A DNA stretch of 64,000 nucleotides from contig CACBMB010000008.1 of NCBI GenBank assembly GCA_902540275.1, forward strand, positions 9,623 to 73,622. The letters are read 5' to 3'. Positions 2,595-60,185 of this stretch are shown here, piece after piece. Made by a program: the position numbers and the translations under genes. The notes below the pieces were generated by a model. The model was given only the letters and a program-made list of their open reading frames with translations. It was not told the DNA's origin and did not search any database. This stretch comes from an uncultured Pelagibacteraceae bacterium. GTDB taxonomy: Bacteria; Pseudomonadota; Alphaproteobacteria; Pelagibacterales; Pelagibacteraceae. Position 1 is the first letter of the stretch, and every line of letters starts with the position of its first letter.

Positions 2595-3470
2595 TTATTT
2601 TTTAATTGGTTTTATTTTGCCATTAGGTCTCACTTTTTTTAAACCTTCAGCAACAACAATATCTTGTAGGTTTAATCCAGAGATTATTTCAATATTTTTA
2701 TCATCTCTAAGACCAGTTTTAACCTCAGTTTTTAAGGCAAGATTTTCATCATTAATTTTATACACAAAGGATTTTTCACCTTCTATCATTACGCTTGTGT
2801 CAGGAACACTCAAAGAGTTTCTTAAATTGAATTTAACGCTTACCTCTAATAATGACCCTGAAATCATATCTTGTTGTTGATTTTCAACTTTTATTCTAGA
2901 TAATAAACTTCTAGTATCAGCATTAATTCTACTTGAAACAAAATCCACCTCACCTTGAAAAAATTTATTTTTGTGGCTTGATATTTTAATTTCAACTGGG
3001 AGCCCTTTTTTTATAAACGCAGAGTAATTTTCAGGTATTTTTATGTCAGAATAAATAACAGAGTTATCGTCGAGTGTAATAATGAAAATATTATCAGATA
3101 CTAAAATATCTTCTGTTATGCCTGTATAACCTAGAACACCTGAGAATGGGGCAATTATATCTCCACTTTTTAACTTAATTAGAACTTCACCTTTTTTAAT
3201 ATTACTTTTAAGTTTTAAATCCTCCAGAAGATCACTTTTTTTTATTTTAAAACTTTTAGATTTATTTGAAATGGCGGTACCAAAAGTTTCAATTTTATTT
3301 GAAAATTCTTTATTAACAACTTCGGTTACTATTATTCCTGGAGGCGGCTGTTTACTAAATTTTTTTTTGAAATGATTTCCAATCATTGTTCGACCAATAA
3401 TCACTATTGCAATTATTAAAAAAAAGGTGGTAATTATGTAAATTGTTTTTGTTGATCTTTTCATTTTCAA
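2595..3470 (-). CDS. RND efflux periplasmic adaptor (membrane fusion protein, HlyD/AcrA family)
   Basis: 291 aa with an N-terminal anchor helix (IYIITTFFLIIAIVIIG) and beta-rich adaptor-like sequence. Its stop abuts the RND pump start. Confidence 0.75.
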   Translation of the reverse strand: MKMKRSTKTIYIITTFFLIIAIVIIGRTMIGNHFKKKFSKQPPPGIIVTEVVNKEFSNKIETFGTAISNKSKSFKIKKSDLLEDLKLKSNIKKGEVLIKLKSGDIIAPFSGVLGYTGITEDILVSDNIFIITLDDNSVIYSDIKIPENYSAFIKKGLPVEIKISSHKNKFFQGEVDFVSSRINADTRSLLSRIKVENQQQDMISGSLLEVSVKFNLRNSLSVPDTSVMIEGEKSFVYKINDENLALKTEVKTGLRDDKNIEIISGLNLQDIVVAEGLKKVRPNGKIKPIKK

Positions 3471-3471
3471 T

Positions 3472-4287
3472 TCAAATTATGCCGTATTCAGCCCAGGAGC
3501 CATCATAAATACAGGGTTGATATTTATCATTTATTAAAGAATAAGCTAGTGCCAAAACACACGCAGTAACTCCAGATCCACATGAAAAAACAATATCTTT
3601 TTCATTTAAATCTTTTATGAATGGTTTAAATACATTTTTAAGTTCATCTTTATTTTTAAAAGTTTTATCTTTGTTAAGACAATGATTAAAAGGAATACAA
3701 AAAGAATTTTTTATAGATCCACTTCTCAAACCTTTTCTGGGCTCAGGTACTTTCCCTTCAAATCTTTCTTTACTCCTACCATCAATAACTTTGAATTTCT
3801 GAGATTTAATATTTTCTTCAATTGAAATTTTGTTTTTAACAAGTTCTTTTTTTTCATTACTTTTGTAATCTGAAATTTTAACTTTGGGAATATCATTAGT
3901 AACATTTCTATTTTCATTGATCCACTTCTTCAAACCTCCATTTAGTATATGAACTAAATTAGGATTATGTCCAAAATAAATAAAATTAAACCAACAACGA
4001 CAGGAACTTACTACATCCGAGTTATCATAAATTATGATTTTATCTGATTGGTTAATTCCCATTTGTGAAACTATTTTTTCCCAATTATTCTTATCTGTAA
4101 GCATATGAGGAAGGGCTGTATTTTTTTGGGAATTTTTATCTAGATCAAAAAATAAAGAACCAGAAATATGTTCCTTAATATATTCTTCATATCCATTTCT
4201 TTTCGTTTGAGGCATATGCCAGGAACAATCAATTATTTTTACATCATTGAAATTTTTTTCTAACCATTCTGTTTCAACTAATGACAT
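3472..4287 (-). CDS. sseA: 3-mercaptopyruvate/thiosulfate sulfurtransferase (tandem rhodanese)
   Basis: 271 aa. N-terminus LVETEWLEKN..VKIIDCSWHMP and active-site loop FSCGSGVTACV are typical of SseA-type rhodaneses. Confidence 0.8.
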   Translation of the reverse strand: MSLVETEWLEKNFNDVKIIDCSWHMPQTKRNGYEEYIKEHISGSLFFDLDKNSQKNTALPHMLTDKNNWEKIVSQMGINQSDKIIIYDNSDVVSSCRCWFNFIYFGHNPNLVHILNGGLKKWINENRNVTNDIPKVKISDYKSNEKKELVKNKISIEENIKSQKFKVIDGRSKERFEGKVPEPRKGLRSGSIKNSFCIPFNHCLNKDKTFKNKDELKNVFKPFIKDLNEKDIVFSCGSGVTACVLALAYSLINDKYQPCIYDGSWAEYGII

Positions 4288-4731
4288 TTATCTTTTTTCT
4301 AAATATTTTTGATGATATTCCTCAGCTGGACAATAATTTTTAATTAATGAAATTTTAGTGACAACTTTCCCAGATAATCTCTCATTAGTATCCTTCAAAA
4401 TTTTTTCAGCTGTTTTTTTTTGATTATCATTTAAATAAAATATTTCACTTCTATATTGAGTTCCAAAATCTGGCCCTTGAGAATTTAAAGTAGTAGGATC
4501 ATGAATTTGAAAAAAAATTTTTAAAATTTTTTCATAAGTTATAATTTTTTCATCAAAATCAAGTTTAACTACCTCAGCATGATTAGTATTACCAGTGCAT
4601 ACTTCTTTATACGTTACTTTTGGACTTTCACCTCCACAGTATCCAACTTCTGTTTTTATGATCCCTTCAATTTTGCTAAACTTTATTTCAGGTCCCCAAA
4701 AACATCCAAGAGCTAAAACTGCTATTTCCAT
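4288..4731 (-). CDS. msrA: peptide methionine-S-sulfoxide reductase
   Basis: GCFWGPE active-site motif plus YHQKYL near the C-terminus. The stop directly abuts the sseA ATG. Confidence 0.9.
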   Translation of the reverse strand: MEIAVLALGCFWGPEIKFSKIEGIIKTEVGYCGGESPKVTYKEVCTGNTNHAEVVKLDFDEKIITYEKILKIFFQIHDPTTLNSQGPDFGTQYRSEIFYLNDNQKKTAEKILKDTNERLSGKVVTKISLIKNYCPAEEYHQKYLEKR

Positions 4732-4766
4732 TGATTATAACTTAAATTAATTTACAAATTATTCAT

Positions 4767-5651
4767 ATGCTAAGTAAAAATCAATTAGGATTTTTGTACA
4801 TGTTTTTGTCTATTTGTGCATTTTCAATAATGGATGTGATTGTAAAATGGTCTGTAGATTATCCAATTGGACAAGTGCTTTTTTTTAGGGGCTTTTTTGG
4901 AATTGTGTTTTATTTTTTTATTATACCAAAAAATAGATTACATGATTTTTATATTACGAAAAGAGCTGGCTTACATTTTTTAAGATGTTTTTCGGGTTTA
5001 ATAGCCTTAGTTGCCATATTTATTGCTTTAAGAAGTTTACCACTGGCAACAGTGGTAAGTATTTCTTTTGCAGCACCAATTTTCACTACGATTTTTTCAA
5101 TTTTTTTATTGAGTGAGAGAGTTGGAATATATAGATGGTTAGCAGTGATTATAGGATTTATTGGTATTTTGATTATTACAGAGCCAGGTATTACCAATCT
5201 AAATATTTATTATATTTTTCCAATTATTTTTTGTTTAGGTCTTTCTTATGTTGCTATAACAATAAGACAATTGTCTACATCCGAACCAGTTTGGTTAATT
5301 TCATTTTACTTTTCTTTGTCAATAACTCTTCTGAGTTTTTTTACTATTCCACAGGGATGGATAATGCCAGATTTTAAAGACTTTGTAATTTTATCAATGA
5401 TAGGAATTTTTGGTGGTGTTGCTAATTTATGGTTATCTCAATCATATAAATATTCAGAGGTTTCTTTAGTTACTCCTTTAAAATATTTAGCTTTAGTATT
5501 TGCGATTATATTTGGGTATTTTATTTGGAATGAAATCCCAACAATCAAAACATTAATAGGGGCATTATTAGTAATTGTTTCTACAATGATTATCTTCAGA
5601 AGAGAGATTTATAACAAGAACATTATTACTTCAAAAACTGTCAATGACTAA
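4767..5651 (+). CDS. EamA/DMT-family permease
   Basis: 294 aa, about 10 predicted TM helices arranged as two EamA-like halves. Confidence 0.7.
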   Translation: MLSKNQLGFLYMFLSICAFSIMDVIVKWSVDYPIGQVLFFRGFFGIVFYFFIIPKNRLHDFYITKRAGLHFLRCFSGLIALVAIFIALRSLPLATVVSISFAAPIFTTIFSIFLLSERVGIYRWLAVIIGFIGILIITEPGITNLNIYYIFPIIFCLGLSYVAITIRQLSTSEPVWLISFYFSLSITLLSFFTIPQGWIMPDFKDFVILSMIGIFGGVANLWLSQSYKYSEVSLVTPLKYLALVFAIIFGYFIWNEIPTIKTLIGALLVIVSTMIIFRREIYNKNIITSKTVND

Positions 5652-6279
5652 AGTCCCCAAATATTGGAATAAAGCTAAATTGCATCTTTCAAAAAAAGAT
5701 AAAATAATGAAGAATTTGATTTTAAAATATAAATCTCCATCTGAAAAAATTTTAACAACTCGAAAAGATATTTTTTATTCATTGTGTAAAAGTATTATTG
5801 GCCAACAAATCAGCGTAGCAGCTGCAGATTCAGTTTTTAAAAGGTTTAAATTATTATGCAAAAATAAGATTAATTCAAAAGTAGTTATAAAAATTAAGAA
5901 TTCTAATTTAAAAAAGTGTGGCTTAAGTAAACAAAAAGTAAACGGAATAAAGAATTTAGCACTACAAATTTCAAATAATACTTTCAATCCTAAATTGATT
6001 AATAAAATGGATGATGAAGAGGCTATTTTATATCTATCGAATTTAAAACAAATAGGCAGATGGTCAGCTGAAATGATTTTACTTTTTACTTACAATAGAC
6101 CAAATATTTGGCCTATCCAGGATATAGGTCTTTTAAGGGCAATATCTAAAAATTATAAAAAAAAGTATTTACCCCCTGAAAAATTTGTTGAAATATTAAA
6201 AAAAAGGTTTTCACCTTATTGCTCAGTAGCTACATGGTATTTGTGGAGAAGTATAGATCCAGAGCCTATTCAGTACTAA
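5644..6279 (+). CDS. HhH-GPD base-excision glycosylase (3-methyladenine DNA glycosylase II-like)
   Basis: IIGQQISVAAA, helix-hairpin-helix LKQIGRWSAEMILLF and catalytic-Asp context WPIQDIGL. Confidence 0.7.
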   Translation: MTKVPKYWNKAKLHLSKKDKIMKNLILKYKSPSEKILTTRKDIFYSLCKSIIGQQISVAAADSVFKRFKLLCKNKINSKVVIKIKNSNLKKCGLSKQKVNGIKNLALQISNNTFNPKLINKMDDEEAILYLSNLKQIGRWSAEMILLFTYNRPNIWPIQDIGLLRAISKNYKKKYLPPEKFVEILKKRFSPYCSVATWYLWRSIDPEPIQY

Positions 6280-6565
6280 ATCCTTCAACTACCTGCATAT
6301 GTCTCCTGGTTGTGTCTTTAGCAAGATCCCAACCTGCCTGATATGCCTCTGATTTTTGACATTCAATAGCTTTTTCATAACTTGGAAATTCCCATACAAC
6401 AGTTCTAATAAAATTATCTCCCTCAAAGTTTTGATAATTACCACCTCTTATTAAGGGTTTTCCACCAAAACTTTTAATTATTGGCGTGACAGTTTCTGCA
6501 TATCTTTTTAAATTTTCTTGATTATCTATTTTAAAATATAAACTGATCCAATATCCTTTTTTCAT
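6266..6565 (-). CDS. DUF1330-family small protein
   Basis: 99 aa with a dimeric alpha/beta-barrel-like pattern (GG..L.RGG......G.......V..EFPS...A..........Y). Family call is from memory. Confidence 0.55.
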   Translation of the reverse strand: MKKGYWISLYFKIDNQENLKRYAETVTPIIKSFGGKPLIRGGNYQNFEGDNFIRTVVWEFPSYEKAIECQKSEAYQAGWDLAKDTTRRHMQVVEGFSTE

Positions 6566-6569
6566 AATT

Positions 6570-7064
6570 CTATTTTAATATTTCTTCTAATCTAATTGAA
6601 GCAATTTTTTTAACTTGAAGTTTTGCTTCTTCAAATTCAATAATATAATTATTTTTAATTCTTTCTTTAAAATTTTTAAGAACTTCAATTTTTGTTTTAC
6701 CTTTTACGGCGATAATAAAGGGAAATCCAAATTTTTCTTGATAATCTAAATTAAGTTTCTCAAATTCCATTAATTCCTCTTTTGTACATGAATTTAATTT
6801 TGCATCAGCTTGTTCTTTGGATGAAAAGGATGTTAGTTTTTTTTCAATAGCTAATTGAGGATGTAAATTAAAGATATTGATTATTTTTTTATCAGGGCTT
6901 TTGTCATATATATTCATCATTTTTACAATTAAATCATTTGAGTCTTTAAAGGGTTTTAGGTTAAAAGCTTCATCTGCGATCCATTCTGACTTTTCAAATA
7001 TATTTCCAAAAATTGATAAGAATTCTTTTTTTGGCAATAGATTTATATCTTCAGCTAATTTCAT
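6570..7064 (-). CDS. uraD: 2-oxo-4-hydroxy-4-carboxy-5-ureidoimidazoline (OHCU) decarboxylase
   Basis: 164 aa with the NLHPQLA and FGFPFIIAVKGKTK motifs characteristic of OHCU decarboxylases. Divergent from the HIU hydrolase gene. Confidence 0.75.
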   Translation of the reverse strand: MKLAEDINLLPKKEFLSIFGNIFEKSEWIADEAFNLKPFKDSNDLIVKMMNIYDKSPDKKIINIFNLHPQLAIEKKLTSFSSKEQADAKLNSCTKEELMEFEKLNLDYQEKFGFPFIIAVKGKTKIEVLKNFKERIKNNYIIEFEEAKLQVKKIASIRLEEILK

Positions 7065-7129
7065 TAGTGTTCAATTATAAGATTTAATATATTTATTATG
7101 AAATTTTTGTATAGTATATACCTAATTGT

Positions 7130-7480
7130 ATGACTAAACTTACAACACACGTTCTCGATATTTATTCTGGAAAACCAGGAAAAGGGATAAAGGTAGATTT
7201 GTATTCTATCTCTGGAGAAAATAAAAAGAAGCTTAAAAGTGTTATTTTGAATAATGATGGTCGCTCTGACGAACCTTTAGCAGAAAAAGATGAATTTAAA
7301 GTAGGTAAATACGAACTTATATTTTTTGTTGGGGAATATTTTAAAAATATAACAAATAGAAATGATTTAAAATTTTTAGATGATGTAGTTATAAGATTTG
7401 GAATCTCAGATAATAAAGAGCATTACCATGTTCCATTATTAGTTTCCCCTTGGAGTTATTCAACGTATAGAGGAAGCTAA
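7130..7480 (+). CDS. uraH: 5-hydroxyisourate hydrolase (transthyretin-like)
   Basis: LTTHVLD start, HYHVPLLVSPWSYSTYRGS C-terminus (diagnostic YRGS tail). Confidence 0.9.
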   Translation: MTKLTTHVLDIYSGKPGKGIKVDLYSISGENKKKLKSVILNNDGRSDEPLAEKDEFKVGKYELIFFVGEYFKNITNRNDLKFLDDVVIRFGISDNKEHYHVPLLVSPWSYSTYRGS

Positions 7481-8916
7481 TGGTTTCCGATACAATCCAA
7501 TTTTTATTAAATGATAAAATTTATAAAATAAGAAATCCTGATCCTAATAAAACAATTTTAAATTATGTTCGTAATGATCTAAAAAAAACTGGTACAAAGG
7601 AAGGCTGTGCTGAAGGTGGCTGTGGAGCTTGTACAGTTGTGCTCGGTGAATTAAATTATAACAAAGTAATTTACAAATCTATTAATGCTTGCATAAGTTT
7701 TTTACCAATTTTAAATGGTAAACAATTAATTTTAATAGAGGATTTAGTTTATAAAAATAAGCCTCATATAGTTCAGGAAGCTTTAATTAAATTTCATGGA
7801 TCGCAATGTGGATTTTGTACCCCAGGTTTTACGATGTCATTATTTTCAATGCGAAAAAATTATAAATCAATAAATAATGAAATTATTGAAGAAGCTTTAT
7901 CTGGAAATTTATGCAGGTGCACAGGTTATAGACCAATAATTGATGCTGCAAAAAGTTTAAAAAATAAAAAAGATCAAGATCACTTTAAAAAAAATCAAAA
8001 TAAAACTATTCACTTATTAAAAAAAATTAAAAATATTGATATTGAAATCAATCATCATGGTAAAAAATACTTTGCTCCAAAAACAATTTTAAATTTAAGG
8101 AGAATATTAAAAAAATATCCTAATTCAAAAATCTTAAGTGGAGGAACTGATCTATCTCTTGAAGTAACTAAATTTAGAAAAGATATTAAAACAATTATTT
8201 CGTTAAATTCTGTTAAAAAACTAAATTTTATTAAGAAAAACAAAAAATTAGTGGAAATTGGAGCCACATCATCTCTTTTTGAATTTCAAAATCTTATCAA
8301 AAAATATTTTTTAGATTTTTATAATGTTCTTAAAAGATATGGGTCAGTCCAAATCAGAAATGTAGGAACAATAGCAGGAAATATAGCCACTGCTTCTCCC
8401 ATTGGAGATACGCTTCCTTTATTATTATCATTAGATGCAAAAGTTGTTATTCAAGGAACAAACAAAAAAAAAACCTTACCCTTAAACCAATTTTTTATAT
8501 CTTATAGAAAAACAAAATTAAAAAAAGGTGAATTCATCTATTCAATAAAAATACCTTTAAATAAAAAAAATATATTTAAAGCTTATAAAATTTCTAAAAG
8601 ATTTGATGACGATATTTCATCTGTGTGTGGGTCATTCAGTTTTTTTATAAAAAAAAATATAATTACAAAAGCTTCAATAGCATATGGGGGTATGTCTGAA
8701 ATACCAAAAAGAGCATTAACAATAGAGAAAGATTTAATAAATTCTGAATTTTCTGAAAATACATTTAGTAGAGCGGCTAACCTTATTGATAAAGATTTTT
8801 CTCCATTAGATGACATGCGAGCTAGTAGAAATTACAGATTAACAGTTGCAAAAAATTTATTATTAAAAGCTTTTTACGAAATTAAAGATAAAAAAAATAT
8901 TAGGATACACTCATGA
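7480..8916 (+). CDS. xdhA: xanthine dehydrogenase small subunit (2x[2Fe-2S] + FAD domain)
   Basis: CAEGGCGACTV, CGFCTPGF, CRCTGYRPI and the FAD-domain motif ILSGGTDLSLEV. Confidence 0.85.
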   Translation: MVSDTIQFLLNDKIYKIRNPDPNKTILNYVRNDLKKTGTKEGCAEGGCGACTVVLGELNYNKVIYKSINACISFLPILNGKQLILIEDLVYKNKPHIVQEALIKFHGSQCGFCTPGFTMSLFSMRKNYKSINNEIIEEALSGNLCRCTGYRPIIDAAKSLKNKKDQDHFKKNQNKTIHLLKKIKNIDIEINHHGKKYFAPKTILNLRRILKKYPNSKILSGGTDLSLEVTKFRKDIKTIISLNSVKKLNFIKKNKKLVEIGATSSLFEFQNLIKKYFLDFYNVLKRYGSVQIRNVGTIAGNIATASPIGDTLPLLLSLDAKVVIQGTNKKKTLPLNQFFISYRKTKLKKGEFIYSIKIPLNKKNIFKAYKISKRFDDDISSVCGSFSFFIKKNIITKASIAYGGMSEIPKRALTIEKDLINSEFSENTFSRAANLIDKDFSPLDDMRASRNYRLTVAKNLLLKAFYEIKDKKNIRIHS

Positions 8917-11216
8917 AAAATGAGCAGTTATTAAAAGGACAAAGTATACCACACGATAGTGCAGATAAGCATGTGACTGGTTTAGCTCAATATACAGATG
9001 ATGTTAGTGAGCCATTAAATACTCTCCATGGAGCTATTGGATGGAGCAAAAAAGCTCATGCAAAAATAAAAAAGATTGATTTAAAAGATGTTAGAGAAAG
9101 TGAAGGAGTGATATCCATCGTCACTTATAAAGATATTCCGGGAAGAAATGATGTTGGCCCAGTCTTTGACGGAGATCCAATATTTCCAAAAACAAAAATT
9201 GAATACTTTGGTCAGCCTTTATTTGCTGTTGCAGCAATTTCGACTGAATTAGCAAGAAAAGCTGTTTTAAAGGCAAAAGTCACCTATGAGGAATTAAAAC
9301 CAATTGCTACCATAGAGGATGCATTGAAAAAAAATAATCTTCTATTTGAACCTAGAATTATTAAAAAGGGCGATCCTCAAAATAAAATAATTAGATCAAA
9401 AAATAAATTAAAAGGTAAATTTAATACCGGTAGCCAAGAACATTTTTATTTAGAAGGACAAGTTTGCCTAGTCATTCCCCAAGAAGATAATAATTTAACA
9501 GTTTACAGCTCAACACAACATCCCTCTGAAACGCAACAGATTGTTGCTAAGATGTTAAAACAAAAAAGTAATTCTATTACAGTACTGGTAAGAAGAATTG
9601 GTGGTGGATTTGGTGGTAAAGAAACAAACTTTATGACAGCTGCAATTTGTGCATTATTATCACATAAAACTGGTAAACCAATTAAATTAAGATTGGATAG
9701 AGATGACGATATTATAATTACTGGTAAGAGACACGACTTTTATTCTGAATACGAAGTTGGATTTAATGACAATGGTAAAATAGAAGGGTTGAAGCTGAAA
9801 CTTGCATCTAGATGCGGAATGTCACCAGATTTATCTTATGCTATTAATGAGAGAGCTTTGTTACATTTAGATAATGCTTATTATTTATCAGATTTAGAAG
9901 TTAAAAATTATCTTTGTAAAACTAATACCTCATCTTCAACTGCATTCAGAGGATTTGGTGGTAATCAAGGTATGATGGCTATAGAAAATATAATCGATAA
10001 CATAGCCAGATTTTTAAAAAAGGATCCTAGCGAAGTAAGAAAAAATAATTTTTATGGTTTAAAAGAGAGAAACATTACTCATTATGGGATGAAAATTAAT
10101 GATAATGTAATTCATGATATTTTTAAAAATTTATTAGATAAATCAAATTATAAAAAAAGATATGAGGATATTAAAAATTTTAATTTAAAAAATAATTATA
10201 AAAAAAAAGGTATAGCTTTAACACCTGTAAAATTTGGTATTTCTTTTACAACCATTCACTTAAATCAAGCTGGGGCGTTAGTACATATTTATACAGATGG
10301 TAGTGTTTACTTGAATCATGGGGGTATAGAAATGGGTCAAGGAACTCATACTAAAATTGCACAGCTTGTAGCTAATACGTTTGGTTTACCTTTTGAAAAA
10401 GTGAAAATTTCATCAACAAATACCTCTAAAGTTCCAAATACATCTGCTAGCGCTGCATCTTCCACAACAGATTTAAATGGTGCCGCCACTTTAAACGCAG
10501 CTGGAAAAATTAAAAAAAATATAAATAATTTTATAAGAGATAAGTATAAGATTTATTCAAAAATTGAACCTACTTATAAAAATCAAAATATTTATTTTGG
10601 AAATAGAATATTTAATTTTAAAAAGATAATAGAAGAAGCTTACTTAAATAGAATATCTCTTTCTTCATCGGGATTTTATTCAACACCAAAAATTAATTTT
10701 GACAAAAAAAAATTTCATGGAAGACCATTTTATTATTTTTGTTATGGTGCTGCAGTATCGGAAGTTACAATTGATACACTTACAGGAGAGAATAAAGTTG
10801 ATAGGGTCGATATAGTTCATGATGCGGGAAATGCAATTAATCCAGCATTAGAACTTGGTCAAATTGAAGGTGGTTTTGTTCAAGGCCAAGGCTGGTTAAC
10901 AATGGAAGAAGTAGTTTGGGATAAATCTGGTAAATTAAAAACCTTTTCACCATCCACATATAAAATACCCGCAGTCACTGATACACCTGATAAGTTTAAT
11001 GTAGAGATTTTTGAGAAAGGATCTAATGTTGAAAATGTTGTAAATAAACAAAAAACTACTGGAGAACCTCCTTTAATGCTTGCGATGAGTGTTTTTTTTG
11101 CAATTAAAGATGCAATAGCATCTGTGGTAGACTACAAAAAAACACCAAAGTTAGATGCGCCAGCAACTCCCGAAAAAATATTAATGAGTATAAGTGAACT
11201 GAAAAGCAAAATTTAG
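8913..11216 (+). CDS. xdhB: xanthine dehydrogenase molybdopterin-binding large subunit
   Basis: 767 aa with RRIGGGFGGKE, AFRGFGG and TGEPPL motifs. The start overlaps the xdhA stop by 4 nt. Confidence 0.9.
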   Translation: MKNEQLLKGQSIPHDSADKHVTGLAQYTDDVSEPLNTLHGAIGWSKKAHAKIKKIDLKDVRESEGVISIVTYKDIPGRNDVGPVFDGDPIFPKTKIEYFGQPLFAVAAISTELARKAVLKAKVTYEELKPIATIEDALKKNNLLFEPRIIKKGDPQNKIIRSKNKLKGKFNTGSQEHFYLEGQVCLVIPQEDNNLTVYSSTQHPSETQQIVAKMLKQKSNSITVLVRRIGGGFGGKETNFMTAAICALLSHKTGKPIKLRLDRDDDIIITGKRHDFYSEYEVGFNDNGKIEGLKLKLASRCGMSPDLSYAINERALLHLDNAYYLSDLEVKNYLCKTNTSSSTAFRGFGGNQGMMAIENIIDNIARFLKKDPSEVRKNNFYGLKERNITHYGMKINDNVIHDIFKNLLDKSNYKKRYEDIKNFNLKNNYKKKGIALTPVKFGISFTTIHLNQAGALVHIYTDGSVYLNHGGIEMGQGTHTKIAQLVANTFGLPFEKVKISSTNTSKVPNTSASAASSTTDLNGAATLNAAGKIKKNINNFIRDKYKIYSKIEPTYKNQNIYFGNRIFNFKKIIEEAYLNRISLSSSGFYSTPKINFDKKKFHGRPFYYFCYGAAVSEVTIDTLTGENKVDRVDIVHDAGNAINPALELGQIEGGFVQGQGWLTMEEVVWDKSGKLKTFSPSTYKIPAVTDTPDKFNVEIFEKGSNVENVVNKQKTTGEPPLMLAMSVFFAIKDAIASVVDYKKTPKLDAPATPEKILMSISELKSKI

Positions 11217-57761: not shown

Positions 57762-58246
57762 AACTTAAAATAAAAGATCAACTACCAGATACAGAGATTT
57801 TTCAACTTATCGATGGAGAACCACAAAAAAGCAAATTAAGAGAGACCATTGGTAATGGTAAAGCTGTTTTATTTGGTTTACCTGGGGCATTTACATCTAC
57901 TTGCTCCAAATTTCACCTACCAGGCTTTGTAGCCAATGCTGATAAAATTAAAGCAAAAGGGATAGAAAATATATTTTGTTTATCAGTAAATGATCCTTAT
58001 GTGATGAATGGCTGGGGTGAGATTAATAATACAGGAGATAAAATTAAAATGTTATCTGACCCATATTTATTATTTACGAAAGCAATTGGAGCAGAAGTTG
58101 ATCGGAATGCAAAAGGAATGGGAATTAGATCAAATCGTTATTTGATGGTAATTGAAAATTTCACAGTCGTTAATATTCACGTTGAAAAAGAAACCAAAGA
58201 ATGTGGTTTAACTTCAGCAGAGAACCTATTAAATAATCTTATCTAG
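57758..58246 (+). CDS. Prx5-type peroxiredoxin
   Basis: LFGLPGAFTSTCS peroxidatic-Cys motif; 162 aa. Confidence 0.85.
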   Translation: MKLKIKDQLPDTEIFQLIDGEPQKSKLRETIGNGKAVLFGLPGAFTSTCSKFHLPGFVANADKIKAKGIENIFCLSVNDPYVMNGWGEINNTGDKIKMLSDPYLLFTKAIGAEVDRNAKGMGIRSNRYLMVIENFTVVNIHVEKETKECGLTSAENLLNNLI

Positions 58247-58254
58247 GTAGGGCA

Positions 58255-58274
58255 GTTCTGTTGCCAGGTGCCCC
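58255..58274 (+). repeat. direct repeat copy 1 (candidate attL core)
   Basis: GTTCTGTTGCCAGGTGCCCC, starting 8 nt after the prx stop and identical to 60166-60185. Similarity continues as (G)AACT downstream and TAGGG upstream. Confidence 0.9.
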
Positions 58275-58286
58275 GAACTTTGTACC

Positions 58287-58302
58287 ATTATTCGCGAATA
58301 AT
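58287..58302. repeat. perfect 16-bp palindrome ATTATTCGCGAATAAT
   Basis: Self-complementary over all 16 nt. Lies between the repeat core and the tandem GTGCGGA motifs, upstream of the islet operon. Confidence 0.85.
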
Positions 58303-58333
58303 TTGAATTGAAAAGTGAGATTTTGCAACCCAA

Positions 58334-58358
58334 GTGCGGATATAGTGCGGACAGAATT
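58334..58358 (+). repeat. tandem GTGCGGA motifs, 11-nt register (left inner flank)
   Basis: GTGCGGAtataGTGCGGAcagaatt, 21/25 identical to 60096-60120 in the same orientation. Confidence 0.85.
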
Positions 58359-58379
58359 TCCGTGCTAGGATCTCTGATT

Positions 58380-58844
58380 ATGAATTTATTTAATGACAAA
58401 GATGGAAAGTTCAAAAGACTTGAAAAAATTATTTTGGATATAGAAAAAGAAAAACACACAATAAGCTGGGCTCACACAACAATACAAAGTTGCCTTTGGA
58501 ATCTTGAGAAGAGTCCAAACCTAACAAAATTTGATTTAGAATTGATTGCTAAAGATTTAAGAGAAAATTTAAATAAAAAAGAAGAAGCCCAAGCCAAAAT
58601 AATGGAATTGCAATATAGTACTCTAAAAGTTGAAATGGGTATCCTTAATCTAGGAAATCAAACCCATGCACTTTTAAGACAGGTAGAGGAAATGAAAGAG
58701 AAAGCTGGTATTAATAACTTATGGAAACATGAGGAGGATAAAAGGTTAAATGAACATTTTAAAAAACATCCTGAAGATGTTGGAACACTTCATATTACAG
58801 AAAATTCGTGGACATTTGATTTTAGCAAAAAGAAAAAAAAATGA
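58380..58844 (+). CDS. 154-aa all-helical hypothetical protein, translationally coupled to the downstream nuclease gene
   Basis: ATG 58380 is preceded by TAGGA at -13 to -9. The track's TTG start at 58308 would run through the repeat motifs. The stop overlaps the next ATG (ATGA at 58841-58844). No motif recognised. Confidence 0.6.
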   Translation: MNLFNDKDGKFKRLEKIILDIEKEKHTISWAHTTIQSCLWNLEKSPNLTKFDLELIAKDLRENLNKKEEAQAKIMELQYSTLKVEMGILNLGNQTHALLRQVEEMKEKAGINNLWKHEEDKRLNEHFKKHPEDVGTLHITENSWTFDFSKKKKK

Positions 58845-59761
58845 ATAGCCTAAATGAAATACTGAATGCTTTTATAATCCAGTCAAAAACTGGCAACCTT
58901 AAAGTATCTCACTATCCAAAAGAATATTTAGATTTGAAAATGAAAGTTTCATTTGGCATGGGAGCTTCTGCAAAAATACCTTGGATATCATTTACTGGTA
59001 AAGAAATGCAAACTAGCAATGGTTTTTACCCGGTATATTTATATTATAAGTCATCAGGAAAATTAATTTTATCTTATGGAATTAGTGAAACTAAAGAATT
59101 TAAGATAAGCTGGCCTGAAGATATAATTGCTAATAAGCAAAAGATTAAAGATTACATAGATGATCCTTTTAGATATGGCGACTCATGGGTCTATAAATCA
59201 TACATACCTAGCACTTCAAGTAGTAGTGAAGATGTTAAATGGTTTGCTGGAGACAATAGACCTTTAAATCCAAATGAACTTGAAACAAACCTAAAAGAAA
59301 TAATCGATCAATATAAAACAGCTGCATCAATTCAAATAGATGATGTTAGCTCACCTCTTAACCAGGGGATGTTTTATTTAGAGTCTCAACTAGAAGAATT
59401 CATAATTGAAAATTGGGATCAAACAGAGTTAGGTCAAAAATACGATTTAATAAAAGAAGACGGAGAATTAGTAAGTCAACAGTATCACACAGATGTTGGT
59501 ATTATAGATATATTAGCTAAGGATAAAGTTAATAAGAATCATGTAGTAATAGAGTTAAAGAAAGGTCAGACTAGCGATAAAACAATAGGACAGTTAACCA
59601 AGTATATGGGCTGGATAAAAAAACATAAAAACGATGAAAAAGTAAAAGGAATTATAATAGCTGGAAAGTATGATGAAAAATTATTTTATGCAGCCAAAAT
59701 GGTACCTAATGCTGAAGTGTTTTTGTACGAGGTGCTTTTTAGATTAAAAGAATTTAAATAA
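58841..59761 (+). CDS. fusion of an MrcB-N (DUF3578)-like DNA-reader domain and a NucS/DUF91-like PD-(D/E)xK nuclease domain (candidate type IV restriction enzyme)
   Basis: N-terminal half: KVSFGMGASAKIPWISFTGKE..SNGFYPVYLYY..GKLILSYG, resembling the McrB-related N-terminal domain pattern. C-terminal half: ESQLEEFIIENW...DVGIIDILAKD...HVVIELKKGQ...IGQLTKYMGW, a D-x14-ExK nuclease core. Assigned by eye. Confidence 0.6.
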   Translation: MNSLNEILNAFIIQSKTGNLKVSHYPKEYLDLKMKVSFGMGASAKIPWISFTGKEMQTSNGFYPVYLYYKSSGKLILSYGISETKEFKISWPEDIIANKQKIKDYIDDPFRYGDSWVYKSYIPSTSSSSEDVKWFAGDNRPLNPNELETNLKEIIDQYKTAASIQIDDVSSPLNQGMFYLESQLEEFIIENWDQTELGQKYDLIKEDGELVSQQYHTDVGIIDILAKDKVNKNHVVIELKKGQTSDKTIGQLTKYMGWIKKHKNDEKVKGIIIAGKYDEKLFYAAKMVPNAEVFLYEVLFRLKEFK

Positions 59762-59766
59762 AAATT

Positions 59767-60096
59767 ATGAAAAAACTTTTAGGGATCGTGGTTCTGGGTT
59801 TGTTGTGGCCAAGTTTAGTTAATGCAACAACCTATGCAGTGGAGTTTACTGAAAGTTCTCTTTATGCAGATTTTACAATAGAAGTTTCAACCAGCTCTCT
59901 TTATGCTGACGAGACTTGGAACATTGTTGGAAGTTGTAGAAATGAATTTAACTATTCTACGATTGAAATATCAGAAAATTCTCTTTATGCAGATAAAACA
60001 ATAGATATTACAACCAGCTCTCTTTATGCTGACAGAGATATTTGTATTAAAAATCCTGACTCTCTACCAGAATGGTTTTTGGAGATGTTAGATTAG
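59767..60096 (+). CDS. small secreted protein with four SLYAD motifs (internal 41-aa duplication)
   Basis: Signal peptide MKKLLGIVVLGLLWPSLVNA, then (E/N/S)SLYAD four times. The DNA repeats are in frame at 59856, 59894, 59979 and 60017. Two Cys residues. Confidence 0.6.
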   Translation: MKKLLGIVVLGLLWPSLVNATTYAVEFTESSLYADFTIEVSTSSLYADETWNIVGSCRNEFNYSTIEISENSLYADKTIDITTSSLYADRDICIKNPDSLPEWFLEMLD

Positions 60097-60120
60097 TGCG
60101 GACACAGAGCGGATAGAATT
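60096..60120 (+). repeat. tandem G(T/A)GCGGA motifs, 11-nt register (right inner flank)
   Basis: GTGCGGAcacaGAGCGGAtagaatt. Overlaps the stop codon of the SLYAD gene and lies 45 nt before repeat copy 2. Confidence 0.85.
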
Positions 60121-60165
60121 AAATTTAACAAAATAATTGTTGATAAATATAAGATGCTAGGGGGC

Positions 60166-60185
60166 GTTCTGTTGCCAGGTGCCCC
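60166..60185 (+). repeat. direct repeat copy 2 (candidate attR core)
   Basis: GTTCTGTTGCCAGGTGCCCC, ending 2 nt before the rnhA stop codon. Confidence 0.9.

Follow-up and report, generated by a model that had tools for sequence, protein, structure and literature searches.

Domain shuffling is well known among type IV restriction enzymes, and a new pairing of a modified-base reader with a nuclease would therefore not astonish a specialist. In EcoKMcrB, the pocket of the N-terminal domain (McrB-N) has Trp49, Leu68 and Tyr117 in one wall and Tyr64, Ala59 and Ser60 in the opposite wall; Tyr64 and Leu68 contact the methyl group and act as methyl discriminators, Ser38 and Trp49 are phosphate clamps, and Tyr41 is the intercalating residue, which is non-conserved (PMC3424535). 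MspJI, PvuRts1I/AbaSI and the PUA-HNH enzymes combine reader and nuclease in a single chain and need no nucleoside triphosphate (NTP) and no methyltransferase (PMC6765204). END-Mag, a NucS-like nuclease with a modified-base sensor, experimentally restricts phages with modified G (PMC12191111). Here, a gene joining a McrB-type reader to a NucS-type nuclease was analyzed in a stretch of 64,000 nucleotides (the window) from an uncultured Pelagibacteraceae bacterium (SAR11; assembly GCA_902540275.1, contig CACBMB010000008.1, positions 9,623 to 73,622). Judged from its sequence, the product is probably (about 0.7) a single-polypeptide, motor-less, NTP-independent, modification-dependent (type IV-like) restriction endonuclease. 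The gene and its parts were located as follows.

58841..59761, + strand: fusion gene, 306 aa, MrcB_N-type (ADAM, DUF3578) reader plus NucS-type PD-(D/E)xK nuclease (open reading frame (ORF), Pfam, NCBIfam, PADLOC, PDB, structure model, Foldseek)
58841..59341, + strand: reader domain, aa 1 to about 167 (alignments to 3ssc, Foldseek)
59354..59731, + strand: nuclease domain, aa about 172-297 (NucS 2vld alignment, family alignment)
59381-3, 59507-9, 59552-4 and 59558-60, + strand: codons of the catalytic residues E181, D223, E238 and K240 (alignment)

The ORF started with ATG, and the G+C content was about 29% across the window. A first-pass annotation, made from the letters alone, had read this frame as an MrcB_N-like domain followed by a NucS-style D...ExK core; the frame and the peptide motifs quoted from it were borne out as a 306-aa product on the + strand, and profile searches returned both families with significance. 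Pfam analysis showed MrcB_N (PF12102) at aa 29-85 (E 9.1e-8) and NucS_C (NucS, PF01939) at aa 199-276 (E 2.8e-14), both with scores above the gathering score. In NCBIfam, aa 1-132 matched positions 1-128 of the 459 positions of the EcoK McrB model PRK11331 (E 3.6e-19), and aa 162-276 matched two NucS equivalogs. The best match among PDB sequences was the EcoKMcrB N-domain 3ssc (E 3.5e-18; 6e-25 with the profile of the 34-sequence family); NucS/EndoMS 2vld was matched at E 6e-6 by the profile, and 5gke was also matched.

An AlphaFold2 model of the fusion was built on 34 homologues, with a mean predicted local distance difference test (pLDDT) score of 81 and a predicted template modelling (pTM) score of 0.59. 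Foldseek comparison of the model with the PDB ranked twenty McrB-N chains first (E about 1e-11, best 4e-12), with target template modelling (TM) scores of 0.76-0.82 and about 30% identity across about 165 columns. These matches included six DNA complexes, among them complexes with 5-methylcytosine (5mC), 5-hydroxymethylcytosine (5hmC), 5-formylcytosine (5fC) and N4-methylcytosine (N4mC, also written m4C or 4mC). NucS/EndoMS came after them (E 5e-6), followed by the Card1/Can2 nuclease domains. By Pfam, NCBIfam, PDB and Foldseek, the N-terminal part was a true homologue of the McrB reader.

The Ser-rich segment PSTSSSSED (aa 124-132), taken in the first-pass annotation for the linker between the domains, was instead a variable loop within the reader, the McrB-N profile alignment extending to aa ~141. 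The helix at 146-167 (...EIIDQYK...) resembled, by eye, the McrB helix ...NIINDYK... just past the end of the alignment, and the junction between reader and nuclease was therefore placed at about aa 168-172.

Alignment with 3ssc showed that the pocket side chains W48, S59, Y63, L67 and Y112 of the fusion corresponded to W49, S60, Y64, L68 and Y117 of EcoKMcrB, and that S37 corresponded to the clamp residue S38. The equivalents of all these residues were invariant in the 34 homologues. Ala59 of the EcoKMcrB pocket was replaced by Thr58 in the fusion, and T58 was nearly invariant among the same homologues. A domain for modified-base recognition was thus present, as seen from the MrcB_N/ADAM homology and the conserved 5mC pocket, and the fusion is probably specific for modified cytosine.

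In the nuclease domain, the segments GIIDIL...VVIELKK aligned with GIVDVM...VVLELKR of NucS (2vld), and D223, E238 and K240 fell on the NucS residues D160, E174 and K176. The positions of E181, D223, E238 and K240 were invariant in the family alignment (A4) and also in 56 divergent relatives with other N-domains, and the C-terminal D...ExK core was therefore an intact one. The fusion matched only the C-domain of NucS in Pfam, NCBIfam and 2vld; the NucS N-terminal domain was missing, and the protein did not belong to NucS/EndoMS proper, in which N-domain and nuclease form the product of a housekeeping repair gene. The C-terminus of the fusion (...YEVLFRLKEFK) had no obvious sliding-clamp-binding motif by eye.

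In PADLOC, the nuclease half matched models of the predicted system PDC-S02 while the reader half was unmatched. The match to models PDLC04824/04799 was confined to aa 148-303, whereas the proteins P0228 and P0193 covered model positions 1-306 and 4-306. The idea that PDC-S02-like proteins contain a diverged McrB reader was rejected, because hhalign aligned the C-terminal half only.

No AAA+/GTPase segment was found in the fusion (no AAA_5 match in Pfam or NCBIfam), and the match to PRK11331 stopped at position 128 of 459; the GTPase part is therefore absent. The McrB AAA+ GTPase domain (Walker A/B, NxxD) had no counterpart in a protein that stops at 306 aa, and the McrC partner (DUF2357 plus PD-DxK) was found in none of more than 20 related loci. 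The lack of motor and McrC reported earlier thus held in the window and beside every relative examined. Thirteen further contexts of relatives gave neither McrC nor an AAA+ partner. DNA methyltransferase genes were absent from the islet around the fusion gene and from beside the homologues examined; the only neighbours of methyltransferase families belonged to the non-DNA families Methyltransf_21 and, faintly, Methyltransf_23. The fusion therefore had no cognate DNA methyltransferase at these loci.

The islet was 1.9 kb long, lay between convergent peroxiredoxin and rnhA genes, and held three small ORFs, the fusion gene being flanked by the other two.

58380..58844, + strand: ORF1, 154 aa from ATG 58380, stop overlapping the fusion start (ATGA), no family match
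59767..60096, + strand: ORF3, 109 aa, SSLYAD internal repeat, no family match, cassette cargo

Neither ORF1 nor ORF3 gave a credible family in Pfam, NCBIfam, PADLOC or PHROGs. The mechanical ORF list started ORF1 at TTG 58308, within a tandem-repeat/arm region; a start at ATG 58380 is more likely, as it gives the 154-aa product annotated on metagenome contig L001. ORF1 was not conserved beside more distant homologues, and an all-against-all comparison of the ORFs of ten related loci showed that they had the fusion gene alone in common. A conserved two-gene operon with ORF1 was rejected, since the neighbours differed at every more distant locus. The fusion gene is a stand-alone unit, because no partner recurred and the fusion alone was shared between loci.

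In ORF3, a 60-nt unit encoding the SSLYAD repeats was duplicated (59851-59910 and 59974-60033, 88% identical), and the N-terminus looked signal-peptide-like by eye. A weak sigma-70-like match (TTGCCA, 16-nt spacer, TACCAT) at 58261-58288 spanned the att core and the conserved arm at the left end of the islet and pointed into the cassette. It may be due to chance, as the region had fewer promoter-like sites than its shuffles (7 in the islet versus a shuffle mean of 10.4).

Searches of the 90%-identity collection gave 1510 clusters at E <= 1e-3, one-domain-only matches included. Nearly all of the best 120 of these 1510 clusters were about 304 aa long, had both domains and came from marine metagenomes or Pelagibacteraceae; the family is common among marine SAR11 metagenomes. 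Matches in the 50%-identity library comprised 3160 representatives, a handful of them over the full length and the rest over one domain or the other. The nuclease module was found behind Mrr_N, EVE and DUF7669, most of its partner N-regions being unrecognised. The McrB reader was joined to AAA_5 in 13 of 24 sampled proteins, and also to STAND NTPases, GmrSD_N, HNH_2, Mrr_cat and Schlafen/AlbA_2. The nuclease module is a shuffled effector, and the reader is shuffled too. Another protein, P0126 (346 aa), had MrcB_N together with a C-terminal region matching Porin_4; a chimera or a frameshift in the gene call is more probable here than a real architecture.

Full-length homologues at 54-56% identity were found in Woesearchaeota, Bathyarchaeia, Nealsonbacteria, an acI actinobacterium and Dehalococcoidales. 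Such identity in distant phyla points to frequent horizontal transfer of the full-length family. The Pelagibacteraceae single-cell genome AG-404-A03 encoded the fusion protein with one residue difference. In public databases, the relatives were annotated as "PDDEXK nuclease domain-containing protein" or by a bare listing of the two Pfam domains.

The first-pass annotation had also described the islet as att-flanked, and this was borne out by direct repeats in the window and by the empty site of a near-identical genome.

58250..58274, + strand: left att core, 25 nt, GGGCAGTTCTGTTGCCAGGTGCCCC, identical to the single empty-site copy
60161..60185, + strand: right att core, GGGGCGTTCTGTTGCCAGGTGCCCC, reverse complement matching the 3' hairpin of alphaproteobacterial/SAR11 transfer-messenger RNA (tmRNA)

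The 25-nt direct repeat was G+C-rich and present in two copies, versus 0.01 expected by chance; the right core differed from the empty-site copy at two 5' positions. The SAR11 genome L018, with an identical peroxiredoxin, had a single core in a 30-nt intergenic spacer, which makes it an exact empty site. The reverse-complemented core matched the Rfam model alpha_tmRNA at its conserved 3' end, and a weak alpha_tmRNA match was obtained twice in 3-kb Rfam scans, but not with 58100-58500 alone. The 20-nt core was found by exact match eight times in viral contigs, where every copy belonged to a complete permuted tmRNA gene and lay close to its 3' end. Because these exact cores lay inside complete tmRNA genes, the core was identified as the tmRNA 3' hairpin. 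The locus thus had what is seen in elements that target ssrA, namely direct repeats equal to the 3' end of the tmRNA gene and an unoccupied site.

The window itself contained no tRNA or tmRNA gene, and a tRNA at the islet edge was rejected, the att site being a stray copy of the tmRNA 3' hairpin. The core hairpin folded no more stably than shuffled sequence (z -0.2 to -1.2), and no terminator is claimed for it for that reason. Stray tmRNA 3' hairpins were also seen in the 30-nt peroxiredoxin-rnhA spacer of islet-less SAR11 genomes (L018 5490-5520, L019 542-561); they could be scars of earlier integration or co-opted terminators.

In AG-404-A03, the same islet was located at the genuine ssrA gene, with fumC/mazG-like genes on one side and thyX on the other; its ORF1 was 98% identical, and two other small proteins, lipoprotein-like (199 and 149 aa), took the place of ORF3. 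Two other fusion variants, each about 61-62% identical to the window protein, lay in core-bounded cassettes of 1.5-1.7 kb (L007; L148-151), and all three variants occupied the first position in a core-flanked cassette. L007 had three cores, equal to two tandem cassettes, at yet another chromosomal site. A further fusion variant was cargo of an element encoding a DUF5906 primase-helicase and an AAA_25 protein. None of the three small ORFs of the islet was a recombinase, so the element encoded no integrase of its own. The fusion gene is accessory cargo of an integrase-less cassette inserted at a copy of the tmRNA 3' hairpin.

We infer modified-base dependence, cleavage, dimerisation and an anti-phage role, and also mobilisation by an integrase in trans. 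In the proposed mechanism, the McrB-type domain would flip and verify a modified cytosine, which is expected to be 5mC and probably also 5hmC or N4mC, as for EcoKMcrB-N. The NucS-type PD-(D/E)xK domain would then cut close by, two DNA-bound protomers probably forming a dimer, and neither GTP-driven translocation, nor McrC, nor NTP hydrolysis would be involved. Methylomes of Pelagibacterales showed N6-methyladenine (m6A) in GANTC/GAWTC, while in marine viral metagenome-assembled genomes m4C methyltransferases dominate, with RGCY as the commonest motif (PMC8919816). The host would be spared because SAR11 DNA is reported to carry GANTC/GAWTC m6A instead of cytosine methylation, and the contrast between marine viral and SAR11 methylation is a plausible basis for telling self from non-self. 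The cassette at the tmRNA 3' hairpin would spread the gene among SAR11 genomes.

The same features can be explained in other ways. The enzyme may act in DNA repair, the base-flipping N-domain finding damaged or mismatched cytosines, such as deaminated 5mC, in the host genome. NucS/EndoMS, the closest solved nuclease, does mismatch repair, and McrB-N flips C as well as 5mC; yet the McrB reader stands in place of the N-terminal domain of NucS, a near-identical genome has an empty site without the gene, the gene occurs at different chromosomal sites and on mobile elements, and it is scattered over distant phyla at 54-56% identity. The domain swap, the empty site, the mobility and the scattered phyla form the pattern of an accessory defence gene and not of a repair gene, which makes a repair function very unlikely. 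Alternatively, the nuclease may serve the mobile element rather than the host, in addiction or exclusion: it would help to retain the cassette or act against rival elements and phages while these mobilise. In keeping with such a service, three variants (two measured pairs were about 62% identical) all occupy the leading position of a cassette flanked by cores, and a further variant rides the DUF5906-primase/AAA_25 element; the translationally coupled ORF1 could act as a modulator. Still, ORF1 was not kept with distant homologues and no antitoxin-like partner recurred. The enzyme would be mechanistically the same, and this explanation, which seems rather unlikely, overlaps that of a modification-dependent restriction enzyme.

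It is unlikely, too, that the protein is a degenerate remnant, or a modification-independent nuclease or DNA-binding protein, such as a restriction-like nuclease that has no methyltransferase and attacks unmodified sites or structures. The lack of conservation of Tyr41 and the weak binding of unmodified DNA by McrB-N speak for it, but the equivalents of the methyl-contacting Tyr64/Leu68 and the pocket side chains are invariant (apart from Ala59, which is Thr58), the family is evidently under purifying selection, and an unregulated cutter of unmodified DNA would kill its host unless a methyltransferase gave protection, and none was linked.

Several points weigh against a modification-dependent restriction enzyme. 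The intercalating Tyr41 of EcoKMcrB was Met40 in the fusion and Gln in most SAR11 homologues, and the Tyr41Gln mutant of EcoKMcrB-N binds methylated DNA poorly (PMC3424535); affinity or sequence context may therefore differ. Unmodified C is also flipped by EcoKMcrB-N (PMC3424535), and a strict dependence on modification is therefore not assured. The interdomain geometry of the model was uncertain (pTM 0.59). Cultured phages gave no homologue, and plasmids carried the nuclease module only. The safety of the host is argued from reported SAR11 methylomes, the analysis having covered 64 kb of the host genome. In the literature searched, there was no paper on this fusion family, and PDC-S02 is a PADLOC-predicted candidate for which no validation was found there.

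The cassette belongs to a wider set in marine metagenomes, and the sequence elements at its ends were as follows.

58275..58333, + strand: conserved arm beside the left core (GAACTTTGTACC...), common to many cassettes
58287-58302, + strand: perfect 16-bp palindrome ATTATTCGCGAATAAT within the arm
58334..58358, + strand: tandem 11-nt repeat GTGCGGATATA GTGCGGACAGA, left copy, upstream of ORF1
60096..60120, + strand: same tandem repeat, right copy, 45 nt before the right core

A metagenome scan with the core and the adjacent element arm as query matched at least 120 contigs (L028-L147). Among the matches listed, 42 of 120 contigs carried 2-4 cores, spaced 90-3112 bp; the core orientation was uniform save for one reverse-strand copy in L099, and the cargo was highly diverse, with 169 clusters among 188 ORFs. 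One reverse-strand core copy was also found in L149. The cassettes, bounded by nearly invariant 20-25-nt copies of the SAR11 tmRNA 3' hairpin, occupied ssrA and other intergenic sites, often as tandem arrays, and this arrangement of small cassettes looks integron-like or tycheposon-like. Coordinates were 58250-60185 for the window cassette, 5124-7433 for L007 and 5415-8137 for L008.

The palindrome ATTATTCGCGAATAAT was present at <=2 mismatches in 46 of 111 element arms among the matches listed; by eye, it resembled the hairpin that precedes the terminal hairpin of genuine tmRNA genes. The arm was about 60 nt long and was followed by an element-specific tandem repeat of 10-12 nt. The repeat recurred at the right-hand end, about 45 nt before the right core, in both elements checked, the islet of the window and L008 and the cassette of L007 (~5955-5980 and ~7340-7365 in L007). 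Examples of element-specific repeats, about 60 nt inside the left core, were GTGCGGAYANA x2, ATCCCGATCA x2 and AATGCCGACCA x2, and the left-end repeat was closely followed by a TGCTAGGAT-like motif and the first ATG. Such tandem repeats are possible arm-type recombinase sites, iterons or operators.

Contig L077 carried two tandem elements of about 6 kb with the same core and left arm, each with a tyrosine integrase; DUF5906 primase-helicase-like and AAA_25/DnaB-like proteins were also encoded (stored coordinates 124-1218, 2930-4999 and 8392-10347). These elements could be helpers that mobilise the integrase-less cassettes. As the fusion cassette encodes no integrase, it would have to be mobilised by one acting in trans. 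The cargo of another cassette (L080 2578-3744) was a protein of 388 aa with an unassigned N-region and, at the C-terminus, a NOV_C (DUF3883-type) nuclease domain; it resembled the McaZI group of modification-dependent enzymes and had no match in PADLOC.

SAR11 is usually considered nearly defenceless. In a preprint survey of SAR11 defence, 51 systems were counted in 46 of 321 genomes, and neither McrB nor a nuclease was mentioned (10.64898/2025.12.11.693642). The SAR11 pangenome paper tied one island to a tmRNA and described canonical mobile elements as absent (PMC11796062). In the literature searched, no paper describing an MrcB_N and NucS-type fusion was found, DUF3578 was mentioned either together with the McrB GTPase or, in censuses of McrBC, as an alias, and nowhere else, and no description of such a cassette system was found for SAR11. 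The points of interest are the motor-less McrB reader, its abundance in SAR11 and the tmRNA-hairpin cassette arrays. We put forward tentatively, as a rather doubtful proposal, that SAR11 widely carries an uncharacterised GTP-independent methylcytosine-dependent enzyme, shuttled by undescribed integron-like, integrase-less tmRNA-hairpin cassettes that are mobilised in trans by tyrosine-integrase/primase elements sharing the att site.

If the enzyme is active, it would be the first case found of a McrB-type 5mC reader operating without the GTPase motor and McrC. The McrB reader would then be as portable as the SRA, EVE and wH domains are, and a compact NTP-independent 5mC/4mC-dependent cutter could serve epigenetic mapping. 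An active enzyme would also add a common defence gene to the most abundant marine bacterium, SAR11, over whose defence repertoire there is debate, and would link SAR11 defence with cytosine methylation, the dominant kind in marine viral methylomes (PMC8919816). The tmRNA-hairpin cassette arrays may explain part of the SAR11 flexible genome, which has been described as having "no canonical mobile elements" (PMC11796062).

Compared with EcoKMcrBC, the fusion had a homologous reader (E 6e-25 with the family profile, about 30% identity over about 165 structure-aligned columns) and kept five side-chain pocket residues and the clamp Ser38. It differed in lacking the GTPase motor, the hexamer-forming domain and McrC, in carrying its nuclease, of a different PD-(D/E)xK family, in the same polypeptide, and in having Met or Gln in place of the intercalating Tyr41. 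Without motor and McrC, long-range translocation between two sites is not expected. NucS/EndoMS (2vld, 5gke) was the closest solved relative of the C-domain, and its D-ExK aligned residue for residue; the fusion lacked the NucS N-terminal dimerisation/DNA-binding domain, and its distribution was accessory and mobile. With PADLOC PDC-S02, it shared the nuclease module (aa 148-303, E 2.9e-44), nearly the same length (about 307 aa) and the single-gene layout, whereas the full-length matches P0228 and P0193 bore an unrelated N-domain.

As a cassette, the locus was like the elements that target tRNA or tmRNA genes (ssrA islands, tycheposon-like elements, integron cassettes) in its repeats equal to the ssrA 3' end, its empty site, its tandem arrays in one orientation and its integrase-bearing relatives sharing the att site; in contrast to them, the fusion cassette had no integrase and lay at a hairpin copy outside ssrA, and its att core, unlike integron attC sites, was nearly invariant. 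In design logic, the protein was closest to the single-chain type IV enzymes (MspJI, PvuRts1I/AbaSI, VcaM4I-type SRA/EVE-HNH, wH fusions and END-Mag), from which it differed in the fold of the reader, McrB-N being distinct from SRA (PMC3424535); the pairing of ADAM with a NucS-like nuclease was not found among characterised enzymes. By this analogy, the fusion most likely works as the single-chain reader-nuclease enzymes of type IV do.

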